DNA of 64,000 nucleotides, from positions 12,461 to 76,460 of the forward strand of contig JAHIRB010000021.1 in NCBI GenBank assembly GCA_018818885.1, in the 5' to 3' direction. This stretch comes from Patescibacteria group bacterium (lineage in GTDB: Bacteria > Patescibacteriota > Patescibacteriia > Buchananbacterales > SURF-54). The notes below the pieces were generated by a model. That model was not told where the DNA came from. It searched no databases and saw only the letters and a program-made list of their open reading frames with translations. A program made the translations under genes and the position numbers. Positions 30,849 through 52,249 of the stretch are shown here, in pieces. Numbering within the stretch: position 1 is the stretch's first letter; every line of letters begins with the position of its first letter.

Positions 30849-32765
30849 ATGCAAAAAATTAATGAATTTTTAGAAAAAAAGACTGTACTAATTCTTGTTA
30901 TAGCTATAATTTTATATGTAATGCTTTTTAGTTTAATTTGCCTTTGGAAATACACCAATTATTCTTATGACCTTCTAGATTTATCAATAATCAACCAGGT
31001 TTTTTTTAATTCTGCAAGTGGTGATTTTTTTGCTTCAAGCATCCATCCCCCCTCTTATTTGGGTGACCATTTTACGCCGATTTTGATTCTACTCTTACCT
31101 TTTTATTTTCTCTTTAAATCCCCCCTTACATTATTGTTTTTACAGACAATAATACTTGCTCTCTGCGCGTGGCCTATTTATTTGATTGCAAACAAAATTT
31201 TAAATAGACGTTGGGGATTATTTTTTGCCTTGATGTTTTTAGTTAATCCTTTAATTGCCAATGTTAATCTATTTGAATTTCACTTTATCCCTTTTGCTAT
31301 ATTCACTTTACTATGGGCAATATATTTTTATCTTAAAGAAGACTTTTGGAAATTTCTTCTGTTTATTTTTTTGAGTTTATTAATTCGCGAAGATGTTTCT
31401 TTAGTAATTTTTATGTTTGGTATTTTAGCATTGTTTGATAGAAAAAAAAATAAATGGGTGCTAACACCAATATTTCTTTCCATACTTTACTTTATAATAT
31501 CTGTAAAAATCACAAGTATTTTTTGGCCGGGTGGAAATTATAAGTTTATGATCTATTATTCTTGGCTTGGAGAAAACTGGCCAGAGCTTATTAAGAATTC
31601 AATTTTAAAAATTGATAAAGTTTTTTTGCACTTCTTCAAGCTCGGTAATATCGAAATGATATTAGGTTTACTGTTACCTTTTGCTCTACTGCCTTTACTT
31701 GCACCTAAATTTTTGATTTTAACTTTACTTATTTTTGTCCAGTTTGTTTTAGGTGAAGCAGGTGGCAGTGCACTTATTGTAAAAACTCATTATTCATCTT
31801 TGTTTATCCCAGCATTATTTACTGCCACGATCATAGCCCTTAAAAAATTTCAAAATAAAAAAATTCAGTTTATTTTTTTTAAATTTCTTCAAAAAGAAAA
31901 AACACTGGCAATTCTCATATTTGTGGTTGCAATTATTTACACTTCAATAGCGCTTGGTCCTTCAATTGGAATTATAAAAACTATAAAAAACACTAAAACT
32001 ATAAAAAACAATACTGACATCAAAAATAAAATGATTGAGCAAATTGATCCTAACGATAGCGTTGTTTCTTCTTATGGTGCATTGACTCCTCTGTCTTCAA
32101 GAAAAAATGTCTATTCCTTACACTATATCTATATGGGCTACCAGCAGTTTAGTAGGAATAAATACGTATTGATAGACCCTGTTGATGCAATGTTAATTGA
32201 TTATCAAGATCTATTTACCTATTATCTTCAATATTATGACAAGTTAGAAGAAGACGAGGAGCTTAATCCTAATAATCTTAATGAACTAATCAAAAATAAT
32301 AATTTAGGACTTGTTGAAATAACCAATGGCATTGCATTATACAAAAAAAATGTAGCAACTGATTATGCACTCTACCAAATACATAATCAAATCCCAAGTA
32401 TAGACTTTCAGCAATCATTGAATTTGGATGATCAAATGATGTTTTTGGGATACAGTCTCTTACCCAACAACGGGGTTGCGACATACTGGCAAAAAATTGG
32501 CGATTCTGATAATTATTTCATAAGGACCAATTCAGACGATATTTTTCTACTTGCATACGGATTGTATCCATTAAAGAATTGGGGAGTAAACGAAATTGTT
32601 CAAATGAACTTTTGGTTTGACCATACAAAAAATAACTCCCAAGTTAGCTTGGAAGTTATCGAAGTTGAAGGTGGTGTAATTCTAAGTGGAATCAGAAGCA
32701 CTCAAAATGCTATCAAAACAAAAACTATTGGGGAATCGATTCAAATTCAGTTACCGACAAACTGA
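30849..32765 (+). CDS. large polytopic membrane protein, DUF2079-like (putative GT-C glycosyltransferase)
   Basis: 638 aa, ~12 TM helices, N-terminal ...DLLDLSIINQVFFNSASGDFFASSIHPPSYLGDHFTPILILLLPFYF... recalled as DUF2079-like. Family call is tentative. Confidence 0.5.
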   Translation: MQKINEFLEKKTVLILVIAIILYVMLFSLICLWKYTNYSYDLLDLSIINQVFFNSASGDFFASSIHPPSYLGDHFTPILILLLPFYFLFKSPLTLLFLQTIILALCAWPIYLIANKILNRRWGLFFALMFLVNPLIANVNLFEFHFIPFAIFTLLWAIYFYLKEDFWKFLLFIFLSLLIREDVSLVIFMFGILALFDRKKNKWVLTPIFLSILYFIISVKITSIFWPGGNYKFMIYYSWLGENWPELIKNSILKIDKVFLHFFKLGNIEMILGLLLPFALLPLLAPKFLILTLLIFVQFVLGEAGGSALIVKTHYSSLFIPALFTATIIALKKFQNKKIQFIFFKFLQKEKTLAILIFVVAIIYTSIALGPSIGIIKTIKNTKTIKNNTDIKNKMIEQIDPNDSVVSSYGALTPLSSRKNVYSLHYIYMGYQQFSRNKYVLIDPVDAMLIDYQDLFTYYLQYYDKLEEDEELNPNNLNELIKNNNLGLVEITNGIALYKKNVATDYALYQIHNQIPSIDFQQSLNLDDQMMFLGYSLLPNNGVATYWQKIGDSDNYFIRTNSDDIFLLAYGLYPLKNWGVNEIVQMNFWFDHTKNNSQVSLEVIEVEGGVILSGIRSTQNAIKTKTIGESIQIQLPTN

Positions 32766-34333
32766 TAAATAGAGATATTTTCTTGATTATAAATTTCTTT
32801 AAGGCGACATTGTCCAATGTCGTTTTCTTTTTTATTAAAAATTACGTAATTAATTTTATTACGTTCTAAAAAACTATCTTTTTGTTCGCAACTAACTTTG
32901 GATAAATAAAACCATTGGTTAAGTATCTTTTTATTGTTTTTAAAATACAAGGTTTCAATTTCGTGTGCTGCATATACTTTTTGGTCCGCATATGCTGGTA
33001 TAAACAAACTATCAAACAACGGTGCTAATACCACTCCTTTGTCTGGTATATATTGATCTAACCATCGCCAGGCCTCAACTTTTTCATCAGGTAAATAAAA
33101 ATTGGAATTACCATTGCTAAAATAATAAATATCTTTTGCTATAACAAACAAATTAGTTGGTGCAATCAATAATAAAAACAAAACCACTGCTAATAATTTA
33201 TTGTTTAATTTTTTATACAGTAAATAAAGAGGGGTGCATGCAAGTACTGCTAAAGGAAAAATTAAGCTCTGCAAAAAACGACTTTGGAATTGTGTCGGTA
33301 TTACTACTAGTAATAAAATTGCCGCCAGCCAGGCTACAAGAAATAATTTTTTTTCATCATATTTATTAGACTTAATTAGCTTGTAAATGGTAAAACCAGA
33401 AAATAACCACAGGAGTCCATACCCTAAAATAATGATCCACAAAGAATCCAAGACAACAATATTTTGAGTTGCTCTAGTATATAATACAGGCACTGTTTTG
33501 ATCAACCAGATATGATAAAAAATCGAAGGAAGCGAAATCACAAAAATTATTGCTACGTGACTAACTTTTTGCCACCCAATTTTCTTGTTCTGTATAAATA
33601 ATGCTAATAGATACAATGATAATATTAAAAAAATGGTTAAAAAATAAAATGGATGAAAATTAAAATAAATCAAAGCCAATATTCCTGCAATAATTGAATA
33701 CCTAAATTTATTATGGTCAAAAGATAACAAAATCAATAAGATAATCAAAAACATCATAATGTACGACATGATAAAATGCGGGCTTTGATACATTGTTAAA
33801 AACAAATTCGATTCTGCAACCCACAAATCTGTAGAATGAAAATAATACTGACTGATTTCTGCTAAAGGTGCAAAATAAAAACCTAAGCCTGATGACAAAG
33901 CTAATATTATAAGTGTAAATTTTCTTTGATTAGTTTCTTTAAAAAAGTAAGCGATTAACAAATAACTAACAACTATCAGTGCTGGTATCAACAAAATTCT
34001 AAACACATGAAATGCTAGAGCAGGCGTAAAAATAAAAATTTTTGCAAATAGACCGACTATCAACCAACTGATATTGAAAAAACCAATTTCTTGGTTTTCT
34101 GATGTAAAATAATCTTCAAATAGATAATCACCTGTCTTGACTTGGTTTATATAGGAAAAATAAATTGGCGGGTCGCCTGGAGATAAAGAATGTAGACCAT
34201 TATAAACGGTACCTGGAGGCACATTAAAGTAAGCAAAAATATAAGGAAAAGTTACAATCACAACCACGGCCAAACTAAAAAATAAGACATAAGCCCATTC
34301 TCGTTTTGAAATTGTTGCCAATAATTCCTTCAT
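32747..34333 (-). CDS. polytopic membrane protein, putative GT-C glycosyltransferase; paralog of 34330-35976
   Basis: Shared N-terminal blocks with the next gene (EWxxVxF...PY...YxGxHxL...D.P.YxSYI.Q...G..LF...F.SE) and similar TM topology; 528 aa. Confidence 0.5.
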   Translation of the reverse strand: MKELLATISKREWAYVLFFSLAVVVIVTFPYIFAYFNVPPGTVYNGLHSLSPGDPPIYFSYINQVKTGDYLFEDYFTSENQEIGFFNISWLIVGLFAKIFIFTPALAFHVFRILLIPALIVVSYLLIAYFFKETNQRKFTLIILALSSGLGFYFAPLAEISQYYFHSTDLWVAESNLFLTMYQSPHFIMSYIMMFLIILLILLSFDHNKFRYSIIAGILALIYFNFHPFYFLTIFLILSLYLLALFIQNKKIGWQKVSHVAIIFVISLPSIFYHIWLIKTVPVLYTRATQNIVVLDSLWIIILGYGLLWLFSGFTIYKLIKSNKYDEKKLFLVAWLAAILLLVVIPTQFQSRFLQSLIFPLAVLACTPLYLLYKKLNNKLLAVVLFLLLIAPTNLFVIAKDIYYFSNGNSNFYLPDEKVEAWRWLDQYIPDKGVVLAPLFDSLFIPAYADQKVYAAHEIETLYFKNNKKILNQWFYLSKVSCEQKDSFLERNKINYVIFNKKENDIGQCRLKEIYNQENISIYQFVGN

Positions 34334-35976
34334 AAAACTTGATAAACAAAATAATCATCATTGCTATATATCTCAAAAAGATATTTCTTACTTACTGGAT
34401 TATAATCACCCAACCTTTTTTCTCTAAAAGAATAATAAACATAATCAATATTTCTTAGATTTAAAAAATCTTTTTCTAAAACATCATCTCGATTCTTACT
34501 ATAAAACCAATTGGCTTCATTTTCTTTTATATATGAATTAATAGTTTCCACAGTATGCCCATTATATACACGACGAGTTGAAAAACCTGGGATTAAATTA
34601 CCACTTGTTTTCCCAGAAAATATTATTTCATCATCTTTTGTGTTTGTTTTAAGCCACTGAAAAACTTTTAACTCACTATTATCAATATAATAAATGTCGT
34701 CTCCTCTGTTAAATAACATGATGTCGGTTGCTATATGAACTAAGGGTGTTGAAAAAAACATAATTATTAATACAAAAATTATGAAAACTGGGTTATTTAA
34801 CCAACGATATTTATTTTTTATGCTTGTATAAACCAATACCAATAAATAAACAGTAAGTAGCGACATGGGAAATGTCATACCCTGAACCATTCTACGCTGG
34901 AATACAAATGGCAAGTAAATAATAATTAACTGGGCATACAGCCATATGACTAACAAACTTAATTTATTATCCTTTAATTTTTTACTATATAATAAATAAA
35001 TTGAACCAATAATTGGAAGCAACAATAAGAACCCATAACCGATTAATAATAAGAAGGGGGTGCTGGTAGGACAGGTATTTTGTAAATATTTAATTTGACC
35101 ATTTAAATTAATATTCACAAACCAATTATAATAGATTATGATTGGCGACGAAATTGCTACAAAAATAATATAATTAAAATATTTTTTCCATACTATCCTT
35201 TTTTCTTTTATCGACTGAAAAGTAAAAATAACAAAAATGATTGGAAATAATGAAAAAATATGAAATGGGTGAAAAGAAAACAAAAGTAATGCCAATATTC
35301 CTGCGATTATCGCATAGCTTCTCTTGTTATTTTCAAGGCATAAAAACATCAACAAAAATATCAATAATATCAACGCTATTGCTGCGATATGATGAGGGCT
35401 ATAATACGTCATTAAAAAAACAAAACTTTCAATAATCCACAGATCAGCTGGCCAAATATATTTACCATCAACTAATATATTTGCCAATTTATCAATAAAA
35501 AATAACATATAATAAAAACCCCAACCCGAGGCAAAAGTAAAAAAGATCAAACTTAATTTTCTTAATCTTTTATCATCAAAGAAATAACTTATTAATAGAT
35601 AGCTTATAATTAATAAAATTGGAATAAAACAAATTCTTGATATTTGGAAAGAAGCCTGTGGGGAAATATTGAATAGTCTAGATATTGTCCCAGGAAATAA
35701 CCAAATAATATTTAATATATCGTGATCATGGGTTTCTGATGAAAATAAATTAGTAAATAATAAATTACCTTCACTCGCCTGCGAAATATACGAGTAATAA
35801 ACCGGTTGATCTGTGGACATTAATAAATGAAAGCCAGTACTTACCTTTCCTTCTGGCGCCTTTAACCAACCATAAACATAAGGTAGAGTGGTAACAATGA
35901 TTGTTAAAATAATAATAGCAAAAACAAACTTCCACTCTTTTTTGTTAATAGAGCTTGTTAGTTGAGTAAAATTCAT
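34330..35976 (-). CDS. polytopic membrane protein, putative GT-C glycosyltransferase; paralog of 32747-34333
   Basis: 548 aa; 4-nt overlaps with both neighbours (operon). Confidence 0.5.
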   Translation of the reverse strand: MNFTQLTSSINKKEWKFVFAIIILTIIVTTLPYVYGWLKAPEGKVSTGFHLLMSTDQPVYYSYISQASEGNLLFTNLFSSETHDHDILNIIWLFPGTISRLFNISPQASFQISRICFIPILLIISYLLISYFFDDKRLRKLSLIFFTFASGWGFYYMLFFIDKLANILVDGKYIWPADLWIIESFVFLMTYYSPHHIAAIALILLIFLLMFLCLENNKRSYAIIAGILALLLFSFHPFHIFSLFPIIFVIFTFQSIKEKRIVWKKYFNYIIFVAISSPIIIYYNWFVNINLNGQIKYLQNTCPTSTPFLLLIGYGFLLLLPIIGSIYLLYSKKLKDNKLSLLVIWLYAQLIIIYLPFVFQRRMVQGMTFPMSLLTVYLLVLVYTSIKNKYRWLNNPVFIIFVLIIMFFSTPLVHIATDIMLFNRGDDIYYIDNSELKVFQWLKTNTKDDEIIFSGKTSGNLIPGFSTRRVYNGHTVETINSYIKENEANWFYSKNRDDVLEKDFLNLRNIDYVYYSFREKRLGDYNPVSKKYLFEIYSNDDYFVYQVL

Positions 35977-36686
35977 TTTTTAAATCTTAAAAAAAGTACC
36001 TTTAAAAAACTTTCGATGATGATTTTGAATTCAAATTTTGATGTACCAATTTGTCGTTCAGTAAAAGTAATTGGCAGCTCTTTTATTTTGAATCCTTTTT
36101 GATAAGCACGATAAGTTGTTTCGATTTGAAAGTTGTATCCAACAGAAGAAAGTTCATTAATATCTATGGATTCTAATACTTGACGTTTATAACATTTAAA
36201 TCCGCCAGTTAAATCTTTGATAGGTAAAAATAAAATTACCTGAGCGTATATATTTCCAAACCTACTTATTAATCTCCTCATTAAATTCCAATTTATTATC
36301 TTACCACCTCTGGTATATCTTGAACCTAGAACCAAGTCACATGATTTTATTTTTTCTAAAAATTGTGGTATATACTCTGGTTTATGCGAAAAATCTGCAT
36401 CCATTTCAAAAATTAAATCAGCGCCTGCCTTTAATGCATGCTTAAACCCAGCAACGTAAGCTGTTCCTAGCCCCATTTTGCCTTGACGATGGAGAATGTG
36501 TAAATTTGAATATTTTGATTTTAGGTCGTCGACCAATTGGCCCGTTCCGTCTGGAGAATTGTCATCAACTACTAAAATATTTAAATTATCAATGTGTAGA
36601 TTAAAAATTTCATCGATGATTGTACCGATATTATTTTTCTCGTTGTATGTAGGAATGATTATGTATATTTTATTTTGATTCTCCAT
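35973..36686 (-). CDS. GT2 polyprenol-phosphate sugar synthase (dolichol-phosphate mannosyltransferase/Dpm1-like, soluble form)
   Basis: IIIPTYNEKNNIGTII...LNILVVDDNSPDGTGQLVDDL...GKMGLGTAYVAGF...EMDADFSHKPEYIPQFL...LVLGSRY: DxD and GT2 motifs; 237 aa. Confidence 0.8.
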   Translation of the reverse strand: MENQNKIYIIIPTYNEKNNIGTIIDEIFNLHIDNLNILVVDDNSPDGTGQLVDDLKSKYSNLHILHRQGKMGLGTAYVAGFKHALKAGADLIFEMDADFSHKPEYIPQFLEKIKSCDLVLGSRYTRGGKIINWNLMRRLISRFGNIYAQVILFLPIKDLTGGFKCYKRQVLESIDINELSSVGYNFQIETTYRAYQKGFKIKELPITFTERQIGTSKFEFKIIIESFLKVLFLRFKK

Positions 36687-36687
36687 A

Positions 36688-38316
36688 TTATTCTTTTAGT
36701 ATCTTGAAAATTAAATACGTGTCAGTACACCCTTCATGTGCCTTTACTAGTAACTGCCAATTTTTTGGTACATTCTTGATTTGCCATAGTTTATCTATCG
36801 CATCAAAACCAATATAATTATTCAATATATCTTCTCTCCTTTCAAAAACCATAGAATTTATAAATATATAACTTATACCATTCTCAGCTATAAAATCTTC
36901 AAATTCATCTAATTTAATATTATATTCAATATCTTTAACTTCAATTTGATTTGACCAAAATTCACCTCTTGGAATAAACCAATTTCCGGTTGTTAATAAC
37001 TTGACAGGATAAGCCTCCTTATAATTACTTAATACTAATTCTTTGATGGTTTCTTGTTGTTTTAAATTTACTTTAATAATGCCTTGGTAATCAAGCGTAA
37101 GCAACATTTTAATATTGAATAATAACAAAAGCACTATCATTGTGACAGAAAAAATATAAAAAAATTTCTTTTTTAATTTTACATTGATTTTTATAAAATG
37201 CTTTATTGTTATCAAAAATATTTCTACCAACAAAAAAATTAGTATAGGCATTACTGGATAAATGAATCTTTGATTTTGAGAACCTCTCATCATGTATATA
37301 TACCAACTAATAATAATAAAATAACTACTAATAAAAACTAGAGATATAAGCCAAGTTTCTCTATTAATTAATATATGGTGTGTGTGATACTTTTTTTTGT
37401 CACGCTTATAATCAAGTGCCAGCAGTATAACCGCTATAATGATAAACATGACAAAGAGTATATTGAAAGGTGTGTAAAAAACTCCAACAATAATTCTTTC
37501 AAAAATATCGTATAAAGTATGACTAGATAAATACCTCCACAAACTACCTTGCAAGATAAAACCTGGTTGGTAAATGTCATCCCATCTATCAATCCACATA
37601 AAGTGTGCGGAATTCTTATTATAAAATGGATTTCCATATACTAACATATTTGCTATCAATAAGGGAAAGTTGATAACAAGTAGTGGTAACAACAAAATCA
37701 ACAAATCTTTAGATTTAGAAACAATTTGCTTCCGATAATATACAAAAAAAATAATAATTGAAACAAAAAGCAAAAGCAAACCTGATGCTTTGGTAAAAAA
37801 AGCAAGCCCAATAAAAATTCCCGCCGATAAAAAATATTTAGTTTCGTTTGTCTCCAAGGCTTTTATTAAATAATGCCACCACAGAAAAAACCATAAAACT
37901 AATAGCACTTCACATAATACTTGGACGGATAACTCTCCAATAATAGGTATCAAAAATACTGATCCTAATGAGGCGACAATATAACCAAATCTTTTCAAGG
38001 CGACTAGATATATAATAATAAAAGAAATTATACCCAGTGATAAAACTAACATTTTTGCTTTAAACAAATAAGTACTCAAGTCATGAGATAGTGGTGCTAA
38101 AAGTATAGGTAGTAATGGGTGTTGATTTCCCAAATACCAGTCGCCGTTACTGATCTTAAATCCTAAATCCAAAAATGCAAATTGGTCAACGTTTTCATTA
38201 AAGTATTCTGTATTTATTATTATATTTAATGTATACAGAGCAAGCAACAATACTAAAAAAAATAATGTTATATACTTTCTAAAACAAATTATTCTCTTTT
38301 TATTCAATTGCATCAT
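36688..38316 (-). CDS. ArnT/PMT-like GT-C membrane glycosyltransferase with C-terminal soluble domain
   Basis: 542 aa; ...IFIGLAFFTKASGLLLLFVSIIIFF... GT39/PMT_2-like block; ~10 TM helices. Confidence 0.5.
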   Translation of the reverse strand: MMQLNKKRIICFRKYITLFFLVLLLALYTLNIIINTEYFNENVDQFAFLDLGFKISNGDWYLGNQHPLLPILLAPLSHDLSTYLFKAKMLVLSLGIISFIIIYLVALKRFGYIVASLGSVFLIPIIGELSVQVLCEVLLVLWFFLWWHYLIKALETNETKYFLSAGIFIGLAFFTKASGLLLLFVSIIIFFVYYRKQIVSKSKDLLILLLPLLVINFPLLIANMLVYGNPFYNKNSAHFMWIDRWDDIYQPGFILQGSLWRYLSSHTLYDIFERIIVGVFYTPFNILFVMFIIIAVILLALDYKRDKKKYHTHHILINRETWLISLVFISSYFIIISWYIYMMRGSQNQRFIYPVMPILIFLLVEIFLITIKHFIKINVKLKKKFFYIFSVTMIVLLLLFNIKMLLTLDYQGIIKVNLKQQETIKELVLSNYKEAYPVKLLTTGNWFIPRGEFWSNQIEVKDIEYNIKLDEFEDFIAENGISYIFINSMVFERREDILNNYIGFDAIDKLWQIKNVPKNWQLLVKAHEGCTDTYLIFKILKE

Positions 38317-38345: not shown

Positions 38346-39761
38346 TTATGTATTTGTTTGGCTAGGATCAATTTTTATTAGTCTTACTTCAAGCGAAACT
38401 AATAGTATCAATAAACCCTGAATCAAATAATAATAGTTAACAAAACCTCTTTTGATTAAGAACAGCGCAAACAAGAATAGGGTAATAGAATGAATTATTG
38501 TAACGATATCTCTATTTTTATTGATTTGATACATCAAAAAGCAAAATAACGCTAATAGTATTGGTAAATACACCGTGGGAGGGATTATATAATTGAAATG
38601 AATCTTGCTGATTGTCATAAATGATATCGAATGTAAAGCGTCATTCATCTGTAATTGATGCAAAAATACATCTGAAACAAAATCCCAAAAATTCCATAGA
38701 AGAAAGGGTATGACAAATATTAATACTGTGACCGTAGATACGATTATTTTTTTTATATTTATATCTTTTAAAAATAACAAAAATGGTACAAAGGCAAACA
38801 TTGTCTGTTTAGTTGCTAATGATATCCCAAAAGCAATATAAGGAAGGTACTTAAAATTATATATATATAGATAAATAGCAAGATAGAAAAACAAAAGTGA
38901 AAGAGGCTCAACCCAAGTTTTTTCCATAACTAAAAGATTCAAAGGTAAATATAAAACAAATAATGCTAATATCTCTGCCATTTCTTTATTCTCTCGATTT
39001 CCATTTTTTACAATTGAATAGATGATTAAAGACATGCCAAAAAAGCAATACATTAATATAACTCTTGGATCAGAAAATAAAAATCTAAAAAGGACAGAAA
39101 AAATTAAAGTCGCGGGCATGTATGCGTATTTATCATTCTTACAATCTGCATCATTATAAATTTCTAGGCATGCTTCCTTGGGATAAGGGTTAAGAAACTC
39201 AGCGCTATAAGGATTTTCTCCTTGCATTAAAGACTCTGCGCCTCCTCCAATTGCCCAATAAACATCTATCCAGGGACCCGTACTATAAGCCATTACTCCA
39301 AGACGCAAAATAAAAGCTATGGTTAGTAAATATATGAATTTGTATTTATAAATGTGCTTTATAATTTTTTTCAATGGTGACCATCTAACTTCAAATTTTA
39401 CATAATAAAAAATAAAAAATAAAATTGCCAAAAATTTAAAATGGAAAAAATCAGAAAATGCAATCTTACCAAAAGTTGCTTCTTCAATCATGTCATAATG
39501 AAAAAACAAAATAATATTAATTAAAAATGCTATCTTAATTAAGTGTATAACTTCAATATTATTTTTTATTATTGCATACCGCTTTAAAAAAGGTAAAAAT
39601 AATATTAACCATGCTAATGCAAGAATGTAAACTTGTACGGGATATTCATACATACCTCGTAGAAGTGTATGTCCGACTAAAATAATTATCAAGGCGATAG
39701 TAAAATAAATTATTCTATTATTATCTTTATGGGGTGTGTTTTGTTTATTGTCGTTAAACAT
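38346..39761 (-). CDS. polytopic membrane protein (putative GT-C glycosyltransferase)
   Basis: 471 aa, >10 TM helices, Cys-containing periplasmic loop. No family recognised. Confidence 0.45.
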   Translation of the reverse strand: MFNDNKQNTPHKDNNRIIYFTIALIIILVGHTLLRGMYEYPVQVYILALAWLILFLPFLKRYAIIKNNIEVIHLIKIAFLINIILFFHYDMIEEATFGKIAFSDFFHFKFLAILFFIFYYVKFEVRWSPLKKIIKHIYKYKFIYLLTIAFILRLGVMAYSTGPWIDVYWAIGGGAESLMQGENPYSAEFLNPYPKEACLEIYNDADCKNDKYAYMPATLIFSVLFRFLFSDPRVILMYCFFGMSLIIYSIVKNGNRENKEMAEILALFVLYLPLNLLVMEKTWVEPLSLLFFYLAIYLYIYNFKYLPYIAFGISLATKQTMFAFVPFLLFLKDINIKKIIVSTVTVLIFVIPFLLWNFWDFVSDVFLHQLQMNDALHSISFMTISKIHFNYIIPPTVYLPILLALFCFLMYQINKNRDIVTIIHSITLFLFALFLIKRGFVNYYYLIQGLLILLVSLEVRLIKIDPSQTNT

Positions 39762-43835: not shown

Positions 43836-44630
43836 TTATTTGCTCACTAGATAATATATACTAGTAGTAAAAAAGTCTCTTAAAATTGGCACTGATCGCA
43901 CTATCTTGAATTGTTTTCTTACCTTTAAACCAAATTTGTATTTATAGATCGGATTGATCAAAAATAATTCTTTTTCAACAATTTTTAAATTATTACTATC
44001 CAATATTTTCTCAAAAGCATCAATGGATATCCCGTCATGTTTGATTCTCAATAAACGACTAATAAGATCCTGATCTTCATTAAAAATATTTAACATTAAT
44101 TTGTAAAGAAATACGGGTAATAGATGAAAGTATGGCAACCTGGAAAGTATTCGACTTTGGCATCCTTGTTGATGTCCACCAAAGGGCATATGCCAAGGCG
44201 GAAAACAAATAAAAATCTTACCATTTGGTTTTATGATATTTAATATATGTCCGATAAAAATATGTTTTTTTTCTACATGTTCAATCGTATCTTTAAGAAT
44301 AATCAAGTCAAAGTTATGGCTAAATTCTTTTTGAAAATTTTCTTTGGTAATGTCTATATTTAATAATTTTATATTTTGCTTTGGTTGGTTAACATCTAAT
44401 AAACCTTTTGCGGCCAGCAGACGCTCCTTGTCTAAATCGACTCCTACAACACTACAACCTATTTCCATAAATGGCTGAATACTTCCTCCAAAACCACACC
44501 CAATATCTACTACTTTTATTTTACGATTAATTTTTAAACTTTTTTCTATAAAAGGTATTATAAAATTCTTGGTTGTTAGTTTTTGATGTTCAAAATATAT
44601 TTTTTCATTATGATGAAAATAACAAGTCAT
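43836..44630 (-). CDS. class I SAM-dependent methyltransferase (MTase 3 of 5)
   Basis: VVDIGCGFGGSIQPFMEIGCSVVGVDLDKERL...FDLIILKDTIEHV. Confidence 0.75.
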   Translation of the reverse strand: MTCYFHHNEKIYFEHQKLTTKNFIIPFIEKSLKINRKIKVVDIGCGFGGSIQPFMEIGCSVVGVDLDKERLLAAKGLLDVNQPKQNIKLLNIDITKENFQKEFSHNFDLIILKDTIEHVEKKHIFIGHILNIIKPNGKIFICFPPWHMPFGGHQQGCQSRILSRLPYFHLLPVFLYKLMLNIFNEDQDLISRLLRIKHDGISIDAFEKILDSNNLKIVEKELFLINPIYKYKFGLKVRKQFKIVRSVPILRDFFTTSIYYLVSK

Positions 44631-44657: not shown

Positions 44658-45440
44658 TCAATCTTTGCGCAGAAGCCAAACATAAGAAGGAAATATCCAA
44701 TAGTTGGTTCTTAATAAAAATATGCCAGCTTTCTGCTTAAATGAATTAGATTTTAGCATATCTATTGCCTCGAATTTTTCTGGATTTTTTGTAATTTTAA
44801 TTGTGTAATCAATTATCCTAAATTTGCTGACTATTTTTCTTAGACCCCAGTAAGTAAGTAAATTTTCGTAATAATGTTTTCCTTTTTTTGTAAGACGTAA
44901 ATATAAACTAGATATTGGTTTAGGAAAAATAGACAATAAAGGTAGTTTATAATGTTCTTCTATAAGTTTAATTCGATTACCTGCTGCAAAAAAACAAATT
45001 CCTCCTTTTTTTAAGACTCTATTGATTTCATCCATCAAGCGTTGAGCGTTTGGCACATGCTCATAAATTTGCGAACAATTCACAATATCAAATGATCCGT
45101 CAGGAAAATTTAAATTCATCCCATCAGAAACATAATAGTTTGCGTTATTTAACATTCTATTATGTTGTGCATATTCAACAGCACTCTTGTCAATATCAAT
45201 CCCTACAACTTCTCTAAAGTTCCTAGCTAAATAATTAGATATTATCCCCGTAGAACATCCTACATCTAATAATTTTTTATCACGTAAATCTCCATGGTAA
45301 TAATCCGCCAAAACTGCTATAATTTTTTTTGCCTTTTGTTCTCTGCCAGAGATATTATACATCTCTTTTCCATGCATTTGAGAAAAATTGTGCTGATATT
45401 GATATTTATCTTCCATACAAATTAGAATATAATTTCTCAA
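44658..45440 (-). CDS. class I SAM-dependent methyltransferase (MTase 4 of 5)
   Basis: LLDVGCSTGIISNYLARNFREVVGIDIDKSAVEYAQ...FDIVNCSQIYEHV...GGICFFA. Confidence 0.8.
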   Translation of the reverse strand: MRNYILICMEDKYQYQHNFSQMHGKEMYNISGREQKAKKIIAVLADYYHGDLRDKKLLDVGCSTGIISNYLARNFREVVGIDIDKSAVEYAQHNRMLNNANYYVSDGMNLNFPDGSFDIVNCSQIYEHVPNAQRLMDEINRVLKKGGICFFAAGNRIKLIEEHYKLPLLSIFPKPISSLYLRLTKKGKHYYENLLTYWGLRKIVSKFRIIDYTIKITKNPEKFEAIDMLKSNSFKQKAGIFLLRTNYWIFPSYVWLLRKD

Positions 45441-45448: not shown

Positions 45449-46204
45449 TTAATAATTTTTCGCTTTAATAATAATCAATTTGGCATTACTATTGTATTTT
45501 AAAAATTTCGTAATGATCATATCAAAATAAAAAATTGGTTTTAAAAAAAATTTTTCAAAATACTTATTTTTAAACAATAAATAACTAGGGCTTCTATTAA
45601 ACAAAAAATATATCGGTCGAATACTAACAATTTCTAATCCTTGCTCTGCTAATATTTTATTATAAAAACTTTTCGATCTAAATTTAACATGCTTTTGAAA
45701 ATGGATGGTAAAGCAGCCTAATGTATCGGTAATAATAATATAACCATCATCCTGTACTAATTTTTTGATGTTGCTTATTGATTGATTGAAAGCATCATCT
45801 TCGATTATATGAAAAAGAACATTATACGCTGTAACTATATCAAATTTCTTATTCTCAAGATCAGCCGGTAGATTCTTACTTATGTCAAATTGATAATATT
45901 GATTCTGCGGATATATTTTTTTTAATTTACTAACTGCATATTCCGAAATATCTGTTCCCACTACTTTAGCTGCGCCAAGTTGTTTAAAATAATTATCAAA
46001 ATATCCAACGCCAGATGCAATATTGATTACTTCTTTATTTTGAATAACAATACCAAGCTTATTGAATAATCTGATGGTAGCAATTTCTTGTAATCTATAG
46101 AGGTATTGATTATATCTTTTTGAAAACGAACGATTGCCCACACCTTGCAAATCAAAACTCTTCTTTAGCCGTTCGTTCCAAAAATTTTCATTACTGTAAC
46201 CCAT
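45449..46204 (-). CDS. class I SAM-dependent methyltransferase (MTase 5 of 5)
   Basis: VINIASGVGYFDNYFKQLGAAKVVGTDISEYAV...FDIVTAYNVLFHI...GYIIITD. Confidence 0.75.
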   Translation of the reverse strand: MGYSNENFWNERLKKSFDLQGVGNRSFSKRYNQYLYRLQEIATIRLFNKLGIVIQNKEVINIASGVGYFDNYFKQLGAAKVVGTDISEYAVSKLKKIYPQNQYYQFDISKNLPADLENKKFDIVTAYNVLFHIIEDDAFNQSISNIKKLVQDDGYIIITDTLGCFTIHFQKHVKFRSKSFYNKILAEQGLEIVSIRPIYFLFNRSPSYLLFKNKYFEKFFLKPIFYFDMIITKFLKYNSNAKLIIIKAKNY

Positions 46205-46218: not shown

Positions 46219-47400
46219 TTACAAATTAAAATATAGTTTTTCGATCTTTGATATCAAAGATTTTTTTGAATAATTATCGTCTACTAATCTCCTGGCATTA
46301 TTAATAAGGTGATCTGATAATTCCGAATTTTTAATTAATCTTGATAATTGCTTGGCTAAATCACTACTTGATCCTGCTTTAAATAATAAACCTGTTTTTT
46401 CATTTATTACTAACTCTGGTATCCCGCCTGAAGCTGCTGCGACGACAGCACACTTACTTGCCATGGCCTCGGCTATGACCATGCCTAAACCCTCTTCCCT
46501 TGATGGCAATACAAAAATATCTGATTTATCATAATATTGATATATCTGACTATGTGGTACCGAACCGACAAATTTGATCCGACCACCAATTTTTAAACCA
46601 GCAACTAATTCTTCTAGATAATTTTTTTGTGGGCCTGACCCCACTATTACAGCCTTTACATCAAAACTTTGATCTAATAATATCTTTATTGCTTTGATAA
46701 AAGTCTTAAAATCTTTTTTGGGGATTAAAGACCCGACACCTAAGATTGCATGTACTATGGCATTATTCTTTGTTTTATTATCTTTTAAAAAGACATCATT
46801 TAAAGGCATGGGAATAGTAATAATTTTAGCACTATTCTCTGGGCTTTTTTCCATAATGACTTGCCCTAAATAGTTGGACACAACTACTATTTTATTAGCT
46901 CTAGTAAAAACTAATTTAGCGAAAAATTTTAATAGTTTACTTTTTCCAAGCAAATAAACATCAGTCCCATGGCAAGTGATTATTAACGGTTTTCTTAATA
47001 TTACTGAAATCAATAACCCAACTAACCCTGCGGGAAACCACCAGTGTGAGTGGATAACATCAACTTTTCTTTTATAGGCAACCCTTAAAGATTTATAAAA
47101 AAAACAAAAAATAAAGCTTAAAAAAACGATTTTATTAGTAAAACTTTTTCTGACTAACTCGTCCATGTTGCCACGATAAGCTAACTTTTGTAAAAAATTA
47201 GGCGCATACTTAAAGCGCCAAATTCTCACTGAATCAATCACTTGATGTTTTGATAAATTCTTATCCATGGGTGCTACTACATCTACCGAAAAACGATCAC
47301 TATTTAAAATCTGACAATAATCCCATAAAAATGGGACTGTAGCATCGTCTTTATTTTTTATAAAGACATGTGATAAGAAACAAATTTTTATTTTCGCCAC
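46219..47400 (-). CDS. GT4-family (GT-B fold) glycosyltransferase
   Basis: ...FVLPSREEGLGMVIAEAMASKCAVVAAASGGIPELVINEKTGLL... classic EX7E region; 393 aa. Confidence 0.85.
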   Translation of the reverse strand: MAKIKICFLSHVFIKNKDDATVPFLWDYCQILNSDRFSVDVVAPMDKNLSKHQVIDSVRIWRFKYAPNFLQKLAYRGNMDELVRKSFTNKIVFLSFIFCFFYKSLRVAYKRKVDVIHSHWWFPAGLVGLLISVILRKPLIITCHGTDVYLLGKSKLLKFFAKLVFTRANKIVVVSNYLGQVIMEKSPENSAKIITIPMPLNDVFLKDNKTKNNAIVHAILGVGSLIPKKDFKTFIKAIKILLDQSFDVKAVIVGSGPQKNYLEELVAGLKIGGRIKFVGSVPHSQIYQYYDKSDIFVLPSREEGLGMVIAEAMASKCAVVAAASGGIPELVINEKTGLLFKAGSSSDLAKQLSRLIKNSELSDHLINNARRLVDDNYSKKSLISKIEKLYFNL

Positions 47401-47441
47401 AATATATATGTTCTTTATGAAACCACTAAAAAACTTATGGT

Positions 47442-48377
47442 TTACTTATATAATACTTTTTTTATTAAATATTCATGCTTTTTATCTTTTTGTATTATTA
47501 TTTCACTCAACAGTCCCAACGAAATTAACTGAACACCCACTACAATCATTAACACTCCAAATATCAACAAAGGAATCCTTCCTTGAGTTGATCCAGTTAT
47601 AAATTTTAGTAGTGTGACATAAAAATCAGCTATAAAACCGATACTAAAAAACAACAAGCCAAAGCTACCAAAAAAATGTGAAGGTTTTTTTACGTATCTC
47701 GTTAAAAGTAGAACTGTCAACAAATCTAAAATTCCTTCAACAAATCTTTTTATTCCATATTTAGTTTTTCCATATTTCCTGGCGTGATGCTGCACCTTAA
47801 TTTCTGTTACCTTAAAACCTTTATTGCTTGCGATCACTGGCAAAAAACGATGGAGATCGCCGTAAACATCTATTTCTTTAATGACTGTGCTACGATAGGC
47901 CTTAATGCCACAATTAATGTCGTGAAGCTTAACTCCTGTGAGCATTCTGACCATAAAATTAAAAGCTCTTGAAGGGATTGTTTTGGTGATTGGATCATTT
48001 CTTTTTTGTTTCCAACCTGATACTAAATCATAGCCTTCATTGATTTTATTAATGAGGGCAGGAATTTCTTGTGGATCGTCTTGCAAGTCTGCATCCATAG
48101 TAATTATTATTTTACCAATGGCTGTTTTAAAACCAGCTGCCAAAGCTGCTGACTTACCAAAATTTGTCCTAAACCTAATAACTTTTACTCCTTGATTATC
48201 ATTATACAATTCTTCCATCACCTTAAAAGTTCCATCTGTTGACCCATCATCAATAAAAATAATTTCATAGCTTAAATTATTGCTTTGCATGACTTGTTTT
48301 ATTTCTAAGTAGAGCTCACTTATGCTATCTTGCTCATTGTATGTCGGAATTACTATTGAAATCTTTTTTTCTTCCAT
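47442..48377 (-). CDS. GT2 polyprenol-phosphate glycosyltransferase with two C-terminal TM helices (GtrB/ArnC-like)
   Basis: ISIVIPTYNEQDSI...IFIDDGSTDGT...GKSAALAAGF...TMDADLQDDPQEI plus C-terminal hydrophobic hairpin; 311 aa. Confidence 0.8.
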   Translation of the reverse strand: MEEKKISIVIPTYNEQDSISELYLEIKQVMQSNNLSYEIIFIDDGSTDGTFKVMEELYNDNQGVKVIRFRTNFGKSAALAAGFKTAIGKIIITMDADLQDDPQEIPALINKINEGYDLVSGWKQKRNDPITKTIPSRAFNFMVRMLTGVKLHDINCGIKAYRSTVIKEIDVYGDLHRFLPVIASNKGFKVTEIKVQHHARKYGKTKYGIKRFVEGILDLLTVLLLTRYVKKPSHFFGSFGLLFFSIGFIADFYVTLLKFITGSTQGRIPLLIFGVLMIVVGVQLISLGLLSEIIIQKDKKHEYLIKKVLYK

Positions 48378-48505: not shown

Positions 48506-49222
48506 TTATCTATTTTTTAATCTCTTTTTTAACTGCCTTAAATTTTTAAAATATGACCAGCTTAAAGCCAGCGGCTGTACCCTGCTTATTCTATTTACTG
48601 GCTCACTCCATTTTACTGGCACTTCTTTTATCTTATAATTTTTTTGTTCGGCTAACAAAACTAATTCGCTATCAAAAAACCATTCGTTATTTTGTACCTG
48701 TGGCAGAATATGGTCTACAACTTTTTTGTTGACTGCTTTAAAACCGCATGGCAAATCTTTTATTTTAGTTTTTACAATTATTCTTGTTGCAACAAAATAT
48801 CCAAAAGAAAATAATTTTCTTAAAAGTGATCTTTTTACTTGGGAGCCTTTCATAAATCTTGAGCCTACTGCCATGTCATAACCTCCTTGATTAATAGCAT
48901 CGACCAAAGGAGGTAGCGACGACAGATCAGTTGCTAGATCTGCATCCATAAAGCAATAAATATCTGCATCAAATTTCTGCCATGCTTTTTTGATAGCAAT
49001 ACCCTTGCCCTTTTCTTCTACAAATAAATATTTGATGTGCTGGTAATCTTGCTCTAGACTCTTTGCTATATACGAGGTAAGGTCGGTAGACTTATTGTCT
49101 GCTATAATAATTTGCCATGTTGATTGCGTGATATTCTGTTTTAAATAATGATGTACGCGCAAAACACTTTCTTTGATAATTTTTTCCTCATTAAACGCTG
49201 GTATAACTATTATTAAATTCAT
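48506..49222 (-). CDS. GT2-family glycosyltransferase (Dpm1-like, soluble)
   Basis: IIVIPAFNEEKII...IIIADNKSTD...GKGIAIKKAW...MDADLATD...AVGSRF; 238 aa. Confidence 0.8.
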   Translation of the reverse strand: MNLIIVIPAFNEEKIIKESVLRVHHYLKQNITQSTWQIIIADNKSTDLTSYIAKSLEQDYQHIKYLFVEEKGKGIAIKKAWQKFDADIYCFMDADLATDLSSLPPLVDAINQGGYDMAVGSRFMKGSQVKRSLLRKLFSFGYFVATRIIVKTKIKDLPCGFKAVNKKVVDHILPQVQNNEWFFDSELVLLAEQKNYKIKEVPVKWSEPVNRISRVQPLALSWSYFKNLRQLKKRLKNR

Positions 49223-49225
49223 ACT

Positions 49226-50920
49226 TTAATTAACTTTATATATCTTAGTCGACTGATCTCGATAAACTTCTTCAAAATAAAAATTATTTGATAAATTTCT
49301 ATCTAAAAGCTGGTGCGTGGTATGTTCAATAAACACATATTCTGATTTAAAATCATTTTTAATTTGTTGGTAAAGAAATTCTTTTTCCTGTCCCATTGTA
49401 ATATTATACCATTTCCAATACAAATCCTTATTATAATTATACATAAATGTAGGGTCTAACCCAACTATATAGTAATTATTAGTATTATGATAAAAAAGTA
49501 TCGGAAATTCATCCCAATCACTGTGTAAAACAATGCTTTTGGGCGTTGTATTTTGATTTAGCCAATTTGATGCATCTTGATATTGAGTAAATGAAAAGTT
49601 TTTATGATGATCAATATATACTCTTTTGACGTCTCTAAAAACAATATAAGGCAACAAAACAATTGGAATAATCAATCCTACCAAAAGATATTTTTTTTGT
49701 AATAAAAGCTTCTTAAAATCCTGAGTTATTTGTTTGACCACTTTTGATGAAATAAATTGATTGATACTGATCGCAGAAAACAAAATCGCAAACGGTATAA
49801 AATATTCTACATTACGACGTGATTTTAATGTTAGTCCAAGAAATAACAAACTTAATATTAAGGTAGTTATCGAAATTACTGATTTTTTTCTTATGTGCAA
49901 GAAAAAAATTGTCAAAGCAATAATAAATATTATAAAAGTTAAAGACGAAGCTGCGATCAGATGAAAAAAATTGTATGGATACCACTCCCCTCCTACACCA
50001 ATTATTTTTTGATAATTTACTACTGCAATTTGAATAATCTGTTGCCAGTAAAACAATAAATTTTTTGGAAAGTATGGATTAAATATGAGGCCCGCTGACA
50101 AACCACCGACTACTGACAACAATAATTTAATATTCTGCAAATGTAATCTTTTATGATTCATTCTATTCACAAAAAATTTTAGAATTTGGGATTTAGAATT
50201 TGGAATTTGTTTGGGATTTAAAATTTGGGATTTAGGTTTTGTTCTCTTTACAAAACCTGACTTCACCGAAGAGAGATAACTACAAAATACAAAAATAAAC
50301 GTTATTACTAAAATTAACGGCCATCCTCCATACAACCAAACAAATAAAAATGATAATAATGATAATAACACATAACGTCTCTGTATAATTAGATACAAAC
50401 CAACAAAAAGTGCTATCAAAGCTAGCCCTTGAGCTTTTGCTAAGTTCAATCGAAAAATGAATGGATTAGCAGTTAACAAAATTAAAGTATAAATGATAGC
50501 TCCCTTAATCTTAAGTCTGTTTAGCAACCAATAAAATGTTAAAATTGCTAAAGTTGCAAAACAAATGGTGGCAAGCTTTAATCCGACCAATGGATTTAGA
50601 ATAGTTACAAAGGGTATTAGTAAAATGTGATATAAAAAATGATGGTCAGCAAAATAATTATTCAAAACAGTAAACTGCAAATATGGGAAATCAAAAACAA
50701 TGCCATTTTGACTAATCAATTCTGCCATTTTAGCGTGATAAAAAGAATCGGGATCTGCAAAACTAGGATACCCCTGCAAAATTAAAAAATATAAAAATAC
50801 AAAGGCAAAAAGTATTATGTATTTTAAATAGGGGGCTTGAGAAATAATAAAAGATAATCTATTTTTCATATGAGAAACAAAAACTTCAGTCAAAATACTG
50901 ACAACCCCAGCGCTAAACAC
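49226..50920 (-). CDS. polytopic membrane protein (putative GT-C glycosyltransferase) carrying an internal tandem-repeat-encoded loop (KSQIL x2)
   Basis: 564 aa, >12 TM helices. The loop ...KPKSQILNPKQIPNSKSQILKFF... is encoded by the aatttgggattt tandem repeat at ~50181-50236. Confidence 0.45.
   Translation of the reverse strand: MFSAGVVSILTEVFVSHMKNRLSFIISQAPYLKYIILFAFVFLYFLILQGYPSFADPDSFYHAKMAELISQNGIVFDFPYLQFTVLNNYFADHHFLYHILLIPFVTILNPLVGLKLATICFATLAILTFYWLLNRLKIKGAIIYTLILLTANPFIFRLNLAKAQGLALIALFVGLYLIIQRRYVLLSLLSFLFVWLYGGWPLILVITFIFVFCSYLSSVKSGFVKRTKPKSQILNPKQIPNSKSQILKFFVNRMNHKRLHLQNIKLLLSVVGGLSAGLIFNPYFPKNLLFYWQQIIQIAVVNYQKIIGVGGEWYPYNFFHLIAASSLTFIIFIIALTIFFLHIRKKSVISITTLILSLLFLGLTLKSRRNVEYFIPFAILFSAISINQFISSKVVKQITQDFKKLLLQKKYLLVGLIIPIVLLPYIVFRDVKRVYIDHHKNFSFTQYQDASNWLNQNTTPKSIVLHSDWDEFPILFYHNTNNYYIVGLDPTFMYNYNKDLYWKWYNITMGQEKEFLYQQIKNDFKSEYVFIEHTTHQLLDRNLSNNFYFEEVYRDQSTKIYKVN
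50181..50236. repeat. tandem short repeat (a)gaatttgggattt x ~4 inside the membrane-protein CDS; related copy at 53581-53620
   Basis: agaatttgggatttagaatttggaatttgtttgggatttaaaatttgggatttagg read directly. Confidence 0.55.
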
Positions 50921-51184
50921 TGGGGCTTGGGATAATTAAATACAAACTAATCAATACCTCTCGCCCCGTAAATAACGAACGAAGTCCCGTTCTACGTGAT
51001 GAAATGAGTTATTCTATGGGGTCAAATAATTTGGTTAGTCTTTACCAAGCATGGCTGCAAAGACCAACTGGCTGGAGTTTTTGATTTTTACCCCAGCACC
51101 AATTCTTTATTTATTGATCGTACACACATTAAATTTTACTTTCTTCATATTAATCATACTAAAAAGATTAATATGGTGTGGAGT

Positions 51185-52249
51185 TTATTTTTTAGAAAGT
51201 TGATTTTTAAAAAAATCTACAAATGGGATGATTTCTGGATTAACATTGTTTTGAATTGCCATATAAAAACTAACGTAACTGCCAAACTGTAATACTTCAA
51301 AGGCTTGATTGATTTTTTGCGATTGTACTGTAGAAAAGCTTACATGACTGATTTTATATTTATTTAAAATTTGCTTTGTTATTTTGATTCTTTTTTGATT
51401 TCTTGGTAAAAATAATTTTGATTCAAAAAATATAAAGACTAGATTGCTACCTTTTGGTTCTTTAAGACCTTCTAGCAAATGATGGTTGAGTTCTGGAATT
51501 AAATAATAAAAAGAAGAGTGTTTGGCACTCTCATTAATTTGATTAGCAACAGCATGTGCATTACCAGCTAAATGCTCACAAGCAACTATAATAGGGATTT
51601 TATTTTTTATTTTTTGTGCTGTTTGCTTAGCAGCATTTTTTGTAGTTTTGATGCCAAAATCATATCTTTTTTCACCTTGCTCTAAAGCTTTAATGACTTT
51701 TTGCAGATCATGTTTTGAAAATTTTACTAAACCCAACTTACTTAGAAGTACTAATTGACCTACCAAAGAATACCCAACTCCCATTCGTGGTTGCCCAGAA
51801 GAATTAAATTTTGGCTCAAATATATAACCCGGTAATTTATTTTTTTGCAAATAACTTTTTAGTTTGCCACCAGCTGCAAATCCAACAATTTTGGCTCCCC
51901 TCTTTTTTGCTTCATTTAAAGTAGCGAGAGGTTCCTCAGTATTACCTGAATAACTAGCAACTAAATATAAAGTTTTGTTATTAACATATTTTGGTAATTG
52001 GTAACTGTTGATTATTTCAAATGGAATTTTAATCTGATCTTTATAAACAGATTTTAAAATATGGGCGCCCAAGCCTGAGCCACCCATGCCATTTACCACA
52101 ACGTTATTAATATTTTGATAATTTGCAGGTATCTTAATTTTATTAGCTTCTTCAAACGCCTGCTGACACTGATTGGGTAATTGGCGTATTGATTCCAAAA
52201 TTTCTTCTGCTCCAAGCTTTTGTATTTGTTTATAATTATTGAGTGTCAT
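51185..52249 (-). CDS. SIS-domain sugar-phosphate isomerase, bifunctional phosphoglucose/phosphomannose isomerase-like
   Basis: 354 aa, two SIS-like halves, ...NNVVVNGMGGSGLGAHIL... phosphate-binding loop. Placement next to the glycosylation island fits hexose-6-P interconversion. Confidence 0.55.
   Translation of the reverse strand: MTLNNYKQIQKLGAEEILESIRQLPNQCQQAFEEANKIKIPANYQNINNVVVNGMGGSGLGAHILKSVYKDQIKIPFEIINSYQLPKYVNNKTLYLVASYSGNTEEPLATLNEAKKRGAKIVGFAAGGKLKSYLQKNKLPGYIFEPKFNSSGQPRMGVGYSLVGQLVLLSKLGLVKFSKHDLQKVIKALEQGEKRYDFGIKTTKNAAKQTAQKIKNKIPIIVACEHLAGNAHAVANQINESAKHSSFYYLIPELNHHLLEGLKEPKGSNLVFIFFESKLFLPRNQKRIKITKQILNKYKISHVSFSTVQSQKINQAFEVLQFGSYVSFYMAIQNNVNPEIIPFVDFFKNQLSKK

Follow-up and report, generated by a model that had tools for sequence, protein, structure and literature searches.

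A 64,000-nucleotide (nt) stretch of contig JAHIRB010000021.1 from a Patescibacteria group bacterium (GCA_018818885.1), hereafter the window, carries a 19.5 kb run of glycosylation genes at 32747-52249. An earlier note on this DNA had described the run as a co-directional island of overlapping minus-strand genes, rich in S-adenosylmethionine (SAM)-dependent methyltransferases. The open reading frame (ORF) map bears this out: all 17 ORFs of at least 100 amino acids (aa) within the interval lie on the minus strand. They are numbered g1 to g17 by ascending coordinate, transcription running from g17 to g1 (Table 1). Neighbouring genes overlap by 4-31 nt at five of the 16 junctions, and the remaining gaps are at most 41 nt except between g15 and g14 (128 nt) and between g17 and g16 (264 nt). 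The latter gap suggests that g17 may be its own transcription unit; g16 to g1 form a single long operon, and g17 a separate unit, probably in both cases. The operon likely ends at a terminator-like hairpin downstream of g1, a consensus match only. A sigma-70 promoter scan was uninformative in this AT-rich DNA, returning 128 sites against 125 expected.

Pfam and NCBIfam scans confirmed five distinct class I methyltransferases, three family 2 glycosyltransferases (GT2), one GT4 enzyme and a phosphoglucose/phosphomannose isomerase (PGI/PMI), as had been proposed from the letters. Polytopic membrane proteins number seven (g1, g2, g4, g5, g7, g9 and g16) rather than the six counted before. GC content is 28.7% in the island and 33.8% outside it; low GC is usual in surface-glycan loci.

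Table 1. Positions in the window of the island genes, in order of transcription, and of the other features discussed. TM, transmembrane; T4SS, type IV secretion system.
Feature	Position	Strand	Match or basis
g17, bifunctional PGI/PMI, SIS + bact-PGI_C	51185-52249	-	PF10432 E 4e-31; NCBIfam NF006426 E 3e-77
g16, conserved anchor, GT-C(A)-fold membrane enzyme	49226-50920	-	Predicted structure; no Pfam family
g15, soluble GT2, polyprenyl-phosphate-hexose synthase type (DPM1/AglJ/PgfS-like)	48506-49222	-	PF00535 E 1e-29
g14, GT2, ArnC/GtrB-like polyprenyl-phosphate glycosyltransferase	47442-48377	-	PF00535 E 7e-35
g13, GT4, GT-B fold, predicted cytoplasmic and nucleotide-sugar-using	46219-47400	-	PF00534 E 4e-42; PF13439 E 2e-16
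g12, class I SAM methyltransferase	45449-46204	-	PF08241 E 2e-12; motif I VINIASGVG, acidic D85
g11, class I SAM methyltransferase	44658-45440	-	PF08241 E 6e-26; motif I LLDVGCSTG
g10, class I SAM methyltransferase with ~120-aa C-terminal extension	43836-44630	-	PF13489 E 7e-13
g9, polytopic GT-C-like putative glycosyltransferase, LA_3751/LA_3752 family type	42452-43819	-	NF047440 E 4e-23, under cut-off
g8, class I SAM methyltransferase	41791-42420	-	PF08241 E 4e-24; stop overlaps g7 start
g7, GT-C mannosyltransferase-like, MptA_B family	40388-41821	-	PF26314 on identical public product
g6, class I SAM methyltransferase	39754-40395	-	PF13489 E 3e-18; 8-nt overlaps with g7 and g5
g5, highly divergent GT-C, MptA_B-like group	38346-39761	-	hhalign to g7 family
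g4, PMT_2-type GT-C (ArnT/PMT-like)	36688-38316	-	PF13231 E 3e-10, above Pfam cut-off
g3, soluble GT2, polyprenyl-phosphate-hexose synthase type	35973-36686	-	PF00535 E 9e-33
g2, GT-C, paralogue of g1	34330-35976	-	Small Patescibacteria-only family
g1, GT-C, paralogue of g2	32747-34333	-	Small Patescibacteria-only family
Terminator-like hairpin	32631-32660	-	13 pairs + T run, 87 nt beyond g1 stop; consensus match only
DUF2079 polytopic membrane protein	30849-32765	+	PF09852 E 2e-55
Ten tandem VirB2/TrbC-like T4SS_pilin genes	25873-30604	+	PF18895 in 10/10
Second glycan gene set	11336-14082; 19506-20813; 21788-22969; 23534-24370	+; +; -; +	Wzx at first interval
GH57 + APH/choline-kinase-like phosphotransferase fusion, 743 aa	57675-59906	+

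A conserved frame around a species-variable cassette

Comparator loci were drawn from contigs with g1 homologues and from 80 species-representative loci found via the g16 family. They span 10 kb downstream of g16, and the counts given here refer to that stretch. The same frame recurs in 80+ related species of Buchanan-, Kerfeld-, Falkow-, Kuenen- and Veblenbacteria and other Patescibacteria. It opens with GlgA, GH15, RuvC and YebC genes in one orientation. PGI, g16, a variable cassette and a g1-family gene follow in the other, and a DUF2079 gene, a VirB2-pilin array and an SBP gene return to the first. g17 is the conserved first gene of the frame, and in most comparator loci it adjoins a g16-family gene; g1 and g2 are the conserved last genes of the cassette, and the DUF2079 gene is the conserved right-hand border, next to the g1 family in most loci.

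Between these borders the cassette ranges from none (e.g. in L085 and L068) to many genes. Its repertoire comprises GT2, PMT_2, YfhO, MptA_B-like and unclassified polytopic proteins, GT4 enzymes and methyltransferases. Across the 54 loci with both borders inside the fetched DNA, the median cassette holds two genes and the largest seven. Methyltransferases are absent from 69 of 82 other-species loci within 10 kb past the anchor, single in 11 and paired in two. The window has 15 genes after g16, five of them methyltransferases, which by comparison marks an extreme expansion of a hypervariable cassette; it is the largest and most methyltransferase-rich version among the loci compared. The earlier view that five methyltransferases are unusual is thus upheld. 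The closest relative (L005) shares g17, g16, g15, g8, g6, g3, g2 and g1 with the window, and a YfhO gene takes the place of the other nine. What is new here is a species-variable cassette at a conserved locus, anchored by a widespread and unannotated family of GT-C enzymes that resemble oligosaccharyltransferases (OSTs).

Recent horizontal gain of the extra genes was considered and rejected for want of a compositional signal (GC 29.1% in core genes, 28.4% in extra genes). Many frame-bearing records of metagenome-assembled genomes, among them L016, L019 and L023, bear the title 'uncultured Gammaproteobacteria bacterium', and one bears 'Vicinamibacterales'; mislabelling or mis-binning is the likely cause.

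The OST-like anchor and its companion enzymes

The g16 family comprises at least 1778 proteins from at least 569 species genomes, 45-60% identical, all annotated as hypothetical and none with a Pfam domain. The predicted structure of g16 is closest to the OSTs AglB, STT3 and PglB, C-terminal globular domain included. As modelled, it has the make-up of an OST, with a 13-TM GT-C(A) core followed by a C-terminal globular domain (CC unit). The motifs ADPDSFYH (D58 invariant, D56 near-invariant), GVGGEW (invariant E312) and SRRNVEY (invariant R369) are conserved, as is S-D-W469-D470-E-F-P about 30 residues past the last TM helix, in which W469-D470 is invariant. Placed on the predicted helices, these residues fall where GT-C(A)/OST enzymes carry functional motifs. 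The canonical WWDYG is absent, and a DK/MI motif was not identified. A Pfam scan of 39 family members at E up to 10 matched STT3 (PF02516) in 0/39 and no GT-C family. PDB searches with the g16 sequence (phmmer), a g16 profile and the C-terminal domain alone returned no OST. Since no sequence method links g16 to STT3 and canonical WWDYG is lacking, we call g16 only 'OST-like': its model resembles an OST, and we do not class it as a member of that family.

GT-C enzymes use lipid-phosphate-linked sugars at the membrane's outer face. All seven polytopic proteins are supported as members of this superfamily. They are polytopic with a predicted GT-C fold, and conserved acidic residues lie in the first extracytoplasmic loop, as placed from predicted helices: an invariant D54 in the g1 family, D56 and D58 in the g16 family and an invariant D70 in the g9 family. 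AlphaFold2 models built from homologue alignments reached pLDDT values of 93 (g1) and 90.7 (g16), and the structural neighbours include AftA, AftD, PimE and ArnT. The earlier note had named transporters as the outcome that would undo its proposal. This reading is rejected, as the structural neighbours are GT-C enzymes and none of the seven is transporter-like. Sequence comparison alone gave less: g1, g2 and g16 have no family match in Pfam or NCBIfam, and searches with g1, g9 and g16 against the PDB found nothing meaningful.

The tandem paralogue pair noticed earlier is g1/g2 (33% identity, E 4e-80), and both are distant homologues of g16 (hhalign of the g16 and g1 families: 98%, E 3e-13). g7 has 17 homologues among the comparator cassettes; its start in the public gene call is at 41797, giving 469 aa. 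g5 is nearly an orphan: a search of 5.8 billion clustered proteins yielded a single weak homologue. The g5 set aligns with the g7 family at 99.1% (hhalign, E 4e-19, 279 columns), and this cassette gene seems to have diverged very fast despite kinship to its neighbour. A role for g5 as a Wzy polymerase was rejected: the EpsG match is weak and under cut-off, and g5 aligns with MptA_B-like GT-C enzymes instead. For g9, 2316 representative homologues were found, with weak matches to PMT_2 in 6/40 and to GT87 in 2/40, and an orthologue lies in the L007 cassette (E 3.5e-122).

Assignment of the three GT2 enzymes to the polyprenyl-phosphate-sugar synthase type, one of them ArnC/GtrB-like with a membrane anchor, was likewise sustained by Pfam and NCBIfam. 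The best specific models of g3, g14 and g15 are AglJ, PgfS, dolichol-phosphate (Dol-P)-hexose transferase, PpgS and ArnC. AglJ is the top NCBIfam match of g3 (E 4e-18, under cut-off), and all top matches of g15 are polyprenyl-phosphate-sugar synthases, each under cut-off. g14 matches ArnC over its full length (NF007986, E 4e-58, under the equivalog cut-off) and has two C-terminal TM helices (residues 236-288), the layout of a GtrB-like GT2 of the Gtr type. An orthologue of g15 follows g16 in many comparator loci. g3 is a conserved partner upstream of g2/g1, with orthologues in L005 (E 6e-112) and L026 (E 6e-106). The three co-encoded GT2 enzymes imply that the seven GT-C enzymes would draw on polyprenyl-(di)phosphate-sugar donors.

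All five methyltransferases carry SAM motif I and an acidic motif II residue after strand 2, and none has a TM helix or signal peptide. Going by these features of the sequence, they should be active and cytoplasmic. Pairwise identity among them is at most 33%. Only the generic Methyltransf_11/23/25/31 domains pass cut-off. No housekeeping NCBIfam or Pfam model, whether UbiE/UbiG/MenG, rRNA/tRNA or PrmA, did so (the best specific scores were UbiG at 73 bits with 103 needed and UbiE at 67 with 216 needed), and the possibility, raised earlier, that these are housekeeping enzymes finds no specific model behind it at any curated cut-off.

g8 is the recurrent methyltransferase of this cassette type, with orthologues in six other loci (E 1e-45 to 3e-65). 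It lies directly downstream of g16 in the Kerfeldbacteria-type loci L014, L020, L022 and L025, and in L014, L020 and L025 an 8-9 TM protein of ~435 aa comes next. g6 has an orthologue in the cassette of the closest relative (E 2e-90). Orthologues of g8 and g6 recur in the same cassette in other Patescibacteria classes, abutting GT-C-like proteins, and one relative's cassette encodes a fused GT4-methyltransferase of 622 aa. This recurrence and the fusion give at least g6 and g8 a functional link to glycosyltransferases. A g12-like gene adjoins GT4 genes in L009, and the PDB relatives of g11 are generic small-molecule, lipid and sugar O/N-methyltransferases. The nearest relatives of g10, 42-48% identical over the full length, are in non-Patescibacteria genomes. 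Its methyltransferase family (loci L096, L110, L122 and L135) is widespread and uncharacterised, and the motif ICFPPWHM is conserved in it.

Proposed pathway and competing explanations

With somewhat better than even confidence, we read the island as an operon that builds a surface glycoconjugate, probably methylated, outside the cytoplasmic membrane from lipid-linked sugars. The family and fold assignments support the earlier proposal of a glycosylation locus that combines polyprenyl-phosphate-sugar GT2 enzymes with many GT-C enzymes. Tight packing and start/stop overlaps, especially along g8-g7-g6-g5, also support a shared pathway. PGI/PMI would supply hexose phosphates for nucleotide sugars, and the GT2 enzymes would charge polyprenyl phosphate with single sugars; one GT2, or the GT4, may lengthen a lipid-linked glycan at the cytoplasmic face. 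The methyltransferases may O-methylate sugars that are still cytoplasmic, lipid- or nucleotide-linked, as AglP does in Haloferax. Methylation would precede export because SAM-dependent enzymes are cytoplasmic. After flipping, GT-C enzymes would add sugars stepwise to the growing glycan, and one OST-like enzyme (g16, g1 or g2) would join the glycan or sugar to a final acceptor, whether protein, lipid anchor or wall polymer. We infer glycan methylation, and with it the 'heavily O-methylated polymer' of the earlier note, from this gene set. A surface antigen or receptor involved in phage or host recognition may be under diversifying selection here, as at O-antigen and archaeal agl loci, and cassette turnover and expansion may reflect this.

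Patescibacteria make up a very large and mostly uncultured share of bacterial diversity; they are host-attached, and their surface chemistry is almost uncharted. The locus would be a genomic address, conserved across many classes, at which surface-glycan diversity arises. Its anchor belongs to a widespread 'dark' family of membrane enzymes with a predicted structure suggestive of OSTs, and the five-methyltransferase extreme variant predicts an unusually methylated glycan. On a conservative reading too, the cassette offers a marker for strain typing and for phage/host-specificity studies in metagenomes.

The Haloferax Agl pathway is the closest worked-out analogue. In that pathway dolichol phosphate is charged by AglJ and AglD, and AglP methylates a sugar on the lipid carrier; AglB is the transferase for the glycan, while a Dol-P-mannose-derived sugar is added extracellularly by AglS (PMC3871713). 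The Haloferax volcanii cluster (AglJ/G/I/E, AglP, AglB, AglD, AglR, AglS) and the island each bring together Dol-P-hexose-synthase-type GT2 enzymes, cytoplasmic SAM methyltransferase activity (in the island, by prediction), an OST-fold enzyme (in the island, by prediction) and extra GT-C enzymes. Content varies among species in both, and AglJ is among the best NCBIfam matches of g3, g14 and g15. In contrast to Agl, the host of the island is bacterial (RuvC, RuvB and YebC are present), g16 is not recognisable by sequence as STT3/AglB, and the island lacks an AglR-like flippase. It also has seven GT-C enzymes and five methyltransferases where Agl has two and one.

Methyltransferases also occur in O-antigen and surface (S)-layer glycan loci, such as WbdD of E. 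coli O8/O9a and WsaE of Geobacillus. Such loci are hypervariable, low in GC and fixed in chromosomal position like the island, and share cytoplasmic SAM-dependent glycan methylation with it if the methylation proposed here is correct. They differ in using ABC-transporter or Wzx/Wzy export, GT-A/GT-B enzymes and a single ligase or OST, whereas the island is dominated by GT-C enzymes. None of its 17 genes matched an ABC transporter, Wzx, Wzy or initiating transferase in Pfam or NCBIfam.

Several observations weigh against the proposed pathway. The island contains no GtrA/GtcA or Wzx flippase and no initiating phosphoglycosyl transferase; in the window, the only such component found is a Wzx 20 kb away. 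The GT2 and g9 family assignments all lie under curated equivalog cut-offs, and g17 may simply be a glycolytic enzyme. PDB relatives of the methyltransferases are generic class I enzymes with unrelated substrates, including lipids, phosphoethanolamine and small molecules, and so permit no substrate call. The 247 metagenome relatives of g10, on contigs of up to 2.27 Mb, neighbour TruB, AroE, DAHP synthase and BamA, housekeeping company that leaves its glycan role the least secure of the five. The 10-kb comparator span also leaves room for larger cassettes and more methyltransferases elsewhere.

Our preferred reading leaves the acceptor open and is compatible with a non-protein envelope polymer. 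That the product is specifically such a polymer, either a lipoglycan resembling lipomannan or lipoarabinomannan (LAM) or a teichoic-acid-like or wall-polysaccharide decoration, is possible, if doubtful. The GT2 and GT-C enzymes would then form a multi-component system as in Gram-positives and mycobacteria, and the GT4 would produce a glycolipid anchor. In Gram-positive and phage systems, a GtrB/ArnC-like GT2 makes a C55-P-sugar that a GT-C enzyme transfers outside (PMC8035078, PMC12041528); the system type is reviewed in PMC8035078. The type of g14 recalls GtrA/GtrB/GtrV, CsbB/GtcA/YfhO and streptococcal GtrB plus GT-C, as does YfhO, a GT-C enzyme of lipoteichoic/wall teichoic acid (LTA/WTA) glycosylation, in the closest relative's cassette. 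Those systems use three components for one sugar, whereas the island has three GT2, seven GT-C, one GT4 and five methyltransferases, and no GtrA/GtcA-type small flippase ORF was found among its ORFs or intergenic gaps.

Mycobacterial lipomannan/LAM and arabinogalactan synthesis (Ppm1, PimE, MptA/MptB, AftA-D, Emb) likewise feeds many GT-C enzymes with polyprenyl-phosphate sugars. Kinship extends to g7 and g5, of the MptA_B family of lipomannan mannosyltransferases, and to the structural neighbours AftA, AftD and PimE; these neighbours, together with ArnT, count in favour of an envelope polymer. The mycobacterial genes are dispersed, form no hypervariable operon and include no methyltransferases in the pathway; the island in turn lacks inositol-lipid anchor genes. 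Three further points count against an envelope polymer: the window has neither a GtrA/GtcA flippase nor LTA/WTA synthesis genes, the OST-like C-terminal domain of g16, g1 and g2 is foreign to such systems, and Patescibacteria envelope polymers are uncharacterised.

Archaeal-style protein N-glycosylation is rather unlikely. On this account g16, perhaps with g1/g2, is a true OST by which an oligosaccharide, lipid-linked and in part methylated, is moved en bloc onto asparagines of surface proteins, and the remaining GT-C enzymes add sugars afterwards in the manner of AglS. The invariant W-D past the last TM helix, where OSTs have WWDYG, fits this account, as do D-P-D after TM1 and E312. AglJ is a top or high NCBIfam match of the GT2 enzymes, and the island's components correspond to those of Agl. 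The missing sequence match to STT3 across 39 family members, the empty PDB sequence and profile searches and the lack of conservation of WWDYG as such argue against it. So do the absence of a phosphoglycosyl transferase and a flippase from the island and the scarcity of N-x-S/T sequons in the ten neighbouring pilins (2 against 6.3 expected).

A broader claim, that the g16 family is a sequence-divergent bacterial STT3/AglB/PglB branch giving many Patescibacteria archaeal-style N-glycosylation and a strain-specific surface code, here heavily methylated, that would bear on host attachment and phage evasion, strikes us as improbable. It would combine polyprenyl-phosphate-hexose GT2 enzymes, cytoplasmic methylation of lipid-linked sugars and later extracellular additions by the extra GT-C enzymes. 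If g16 were an OST, bacterial N-glycosylation would be far wider than the Campylobacterota-type PglB systems, and Patescibacteria would gain a further archaeal-like trait. The literature searched contained no paper connecting OSTs with Patescibacteria.

It is also unlikely that some or all of the methyltransferases act on lipids, head groups or small molecules as mere passengers of the operon. The housekeeping neighbours of the nearest g10 relatives, with no glycan genes nearby, point that way, as does the presence of phosphoethanolamine and phosphatidylethanolamine N-methyltransferases and UbiG among the PDB neighbours. In a variant of this explanation, the contiguous g13-g10 block, a GT4 with three methyltransferases, makes a cytoplasmic polymethylated polysaccharide like the mycobacterial MMP/MGLP. 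Against passengers stand g8 and g6, which overlap GT-C genes at start and stop codons and whose orthologues recur in the cassette across classes, together with the GT4-methyltransferase fusion and the failure of every methyltransferase to reach a curated housekeeping cut-off. As a rule, Patescibacteria neither synthesise quinones nor make lipids de novo, which also counts against this explanation.

Neighbouring genes in the window

The DUF2079 gene is convergent with g1 and overlaps it by 19 nt (32747-32765). Its product aligns with the g7 family (hhalign 86%, E 5e-6) and is probably GT-C-related. A second terminator-like hairpin lies at 32801-32826 (+), so that on each strand the hairpin falls within the 3' end of the coding sequence of the gene opposite.

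The pilin-like array beyond it, which the earlier note had proposed as a possible substrate of the island, consists of VirB2-like T4SS pilins and not of type IV pilins. Their VirB2 type, their sequon depletion and their position as convergent neighbours rather than members of one operon leave the proposal unsupported, and adjacency within the frame is by itself no evidence for a substrate role; we reject it. VirB2-like arrays of 2-11 genes are reported in Patescibacteria (10.1101/2025.01.22.634366), and the ten genes here are near the upper end of that range. They are divergent from each other, and the first (25873-26541) is extended at its N terminus by a long Cys-rich segment.

Among the products of the second glycan gene set are a flippase of Wzx type (Polysacc_synt) and a Wzy_C/O-antigen-ligase protein; the others are a weakly GT87-like membrane protein, a further PMT_2 protein and a sugar-nucleotidyl transferase. 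Genes for Wzx and Wzy_C both lie in its first interval, 20 kb from the island, and this Wzx could serve the island in trans. Two large ORFs, at 5468-7825 (+, 785 aa) and 15339-17582 (+, 747 aa), have no significant Pfam match.

On the other side of the island, the GH57 fusion gene adjoins GlgA and the GH15 gene, a position kept in many related loci (ORFs of ~740-760 aa). At 52453-52479, in the divergent intergenic region between g17 and an NYN-domain gene, lies a palindromic hairpin with runs of A and of T (AAAAAACGGCC...GGCCGTTTTTT); its last position is one base ahead of the NYN start codon.

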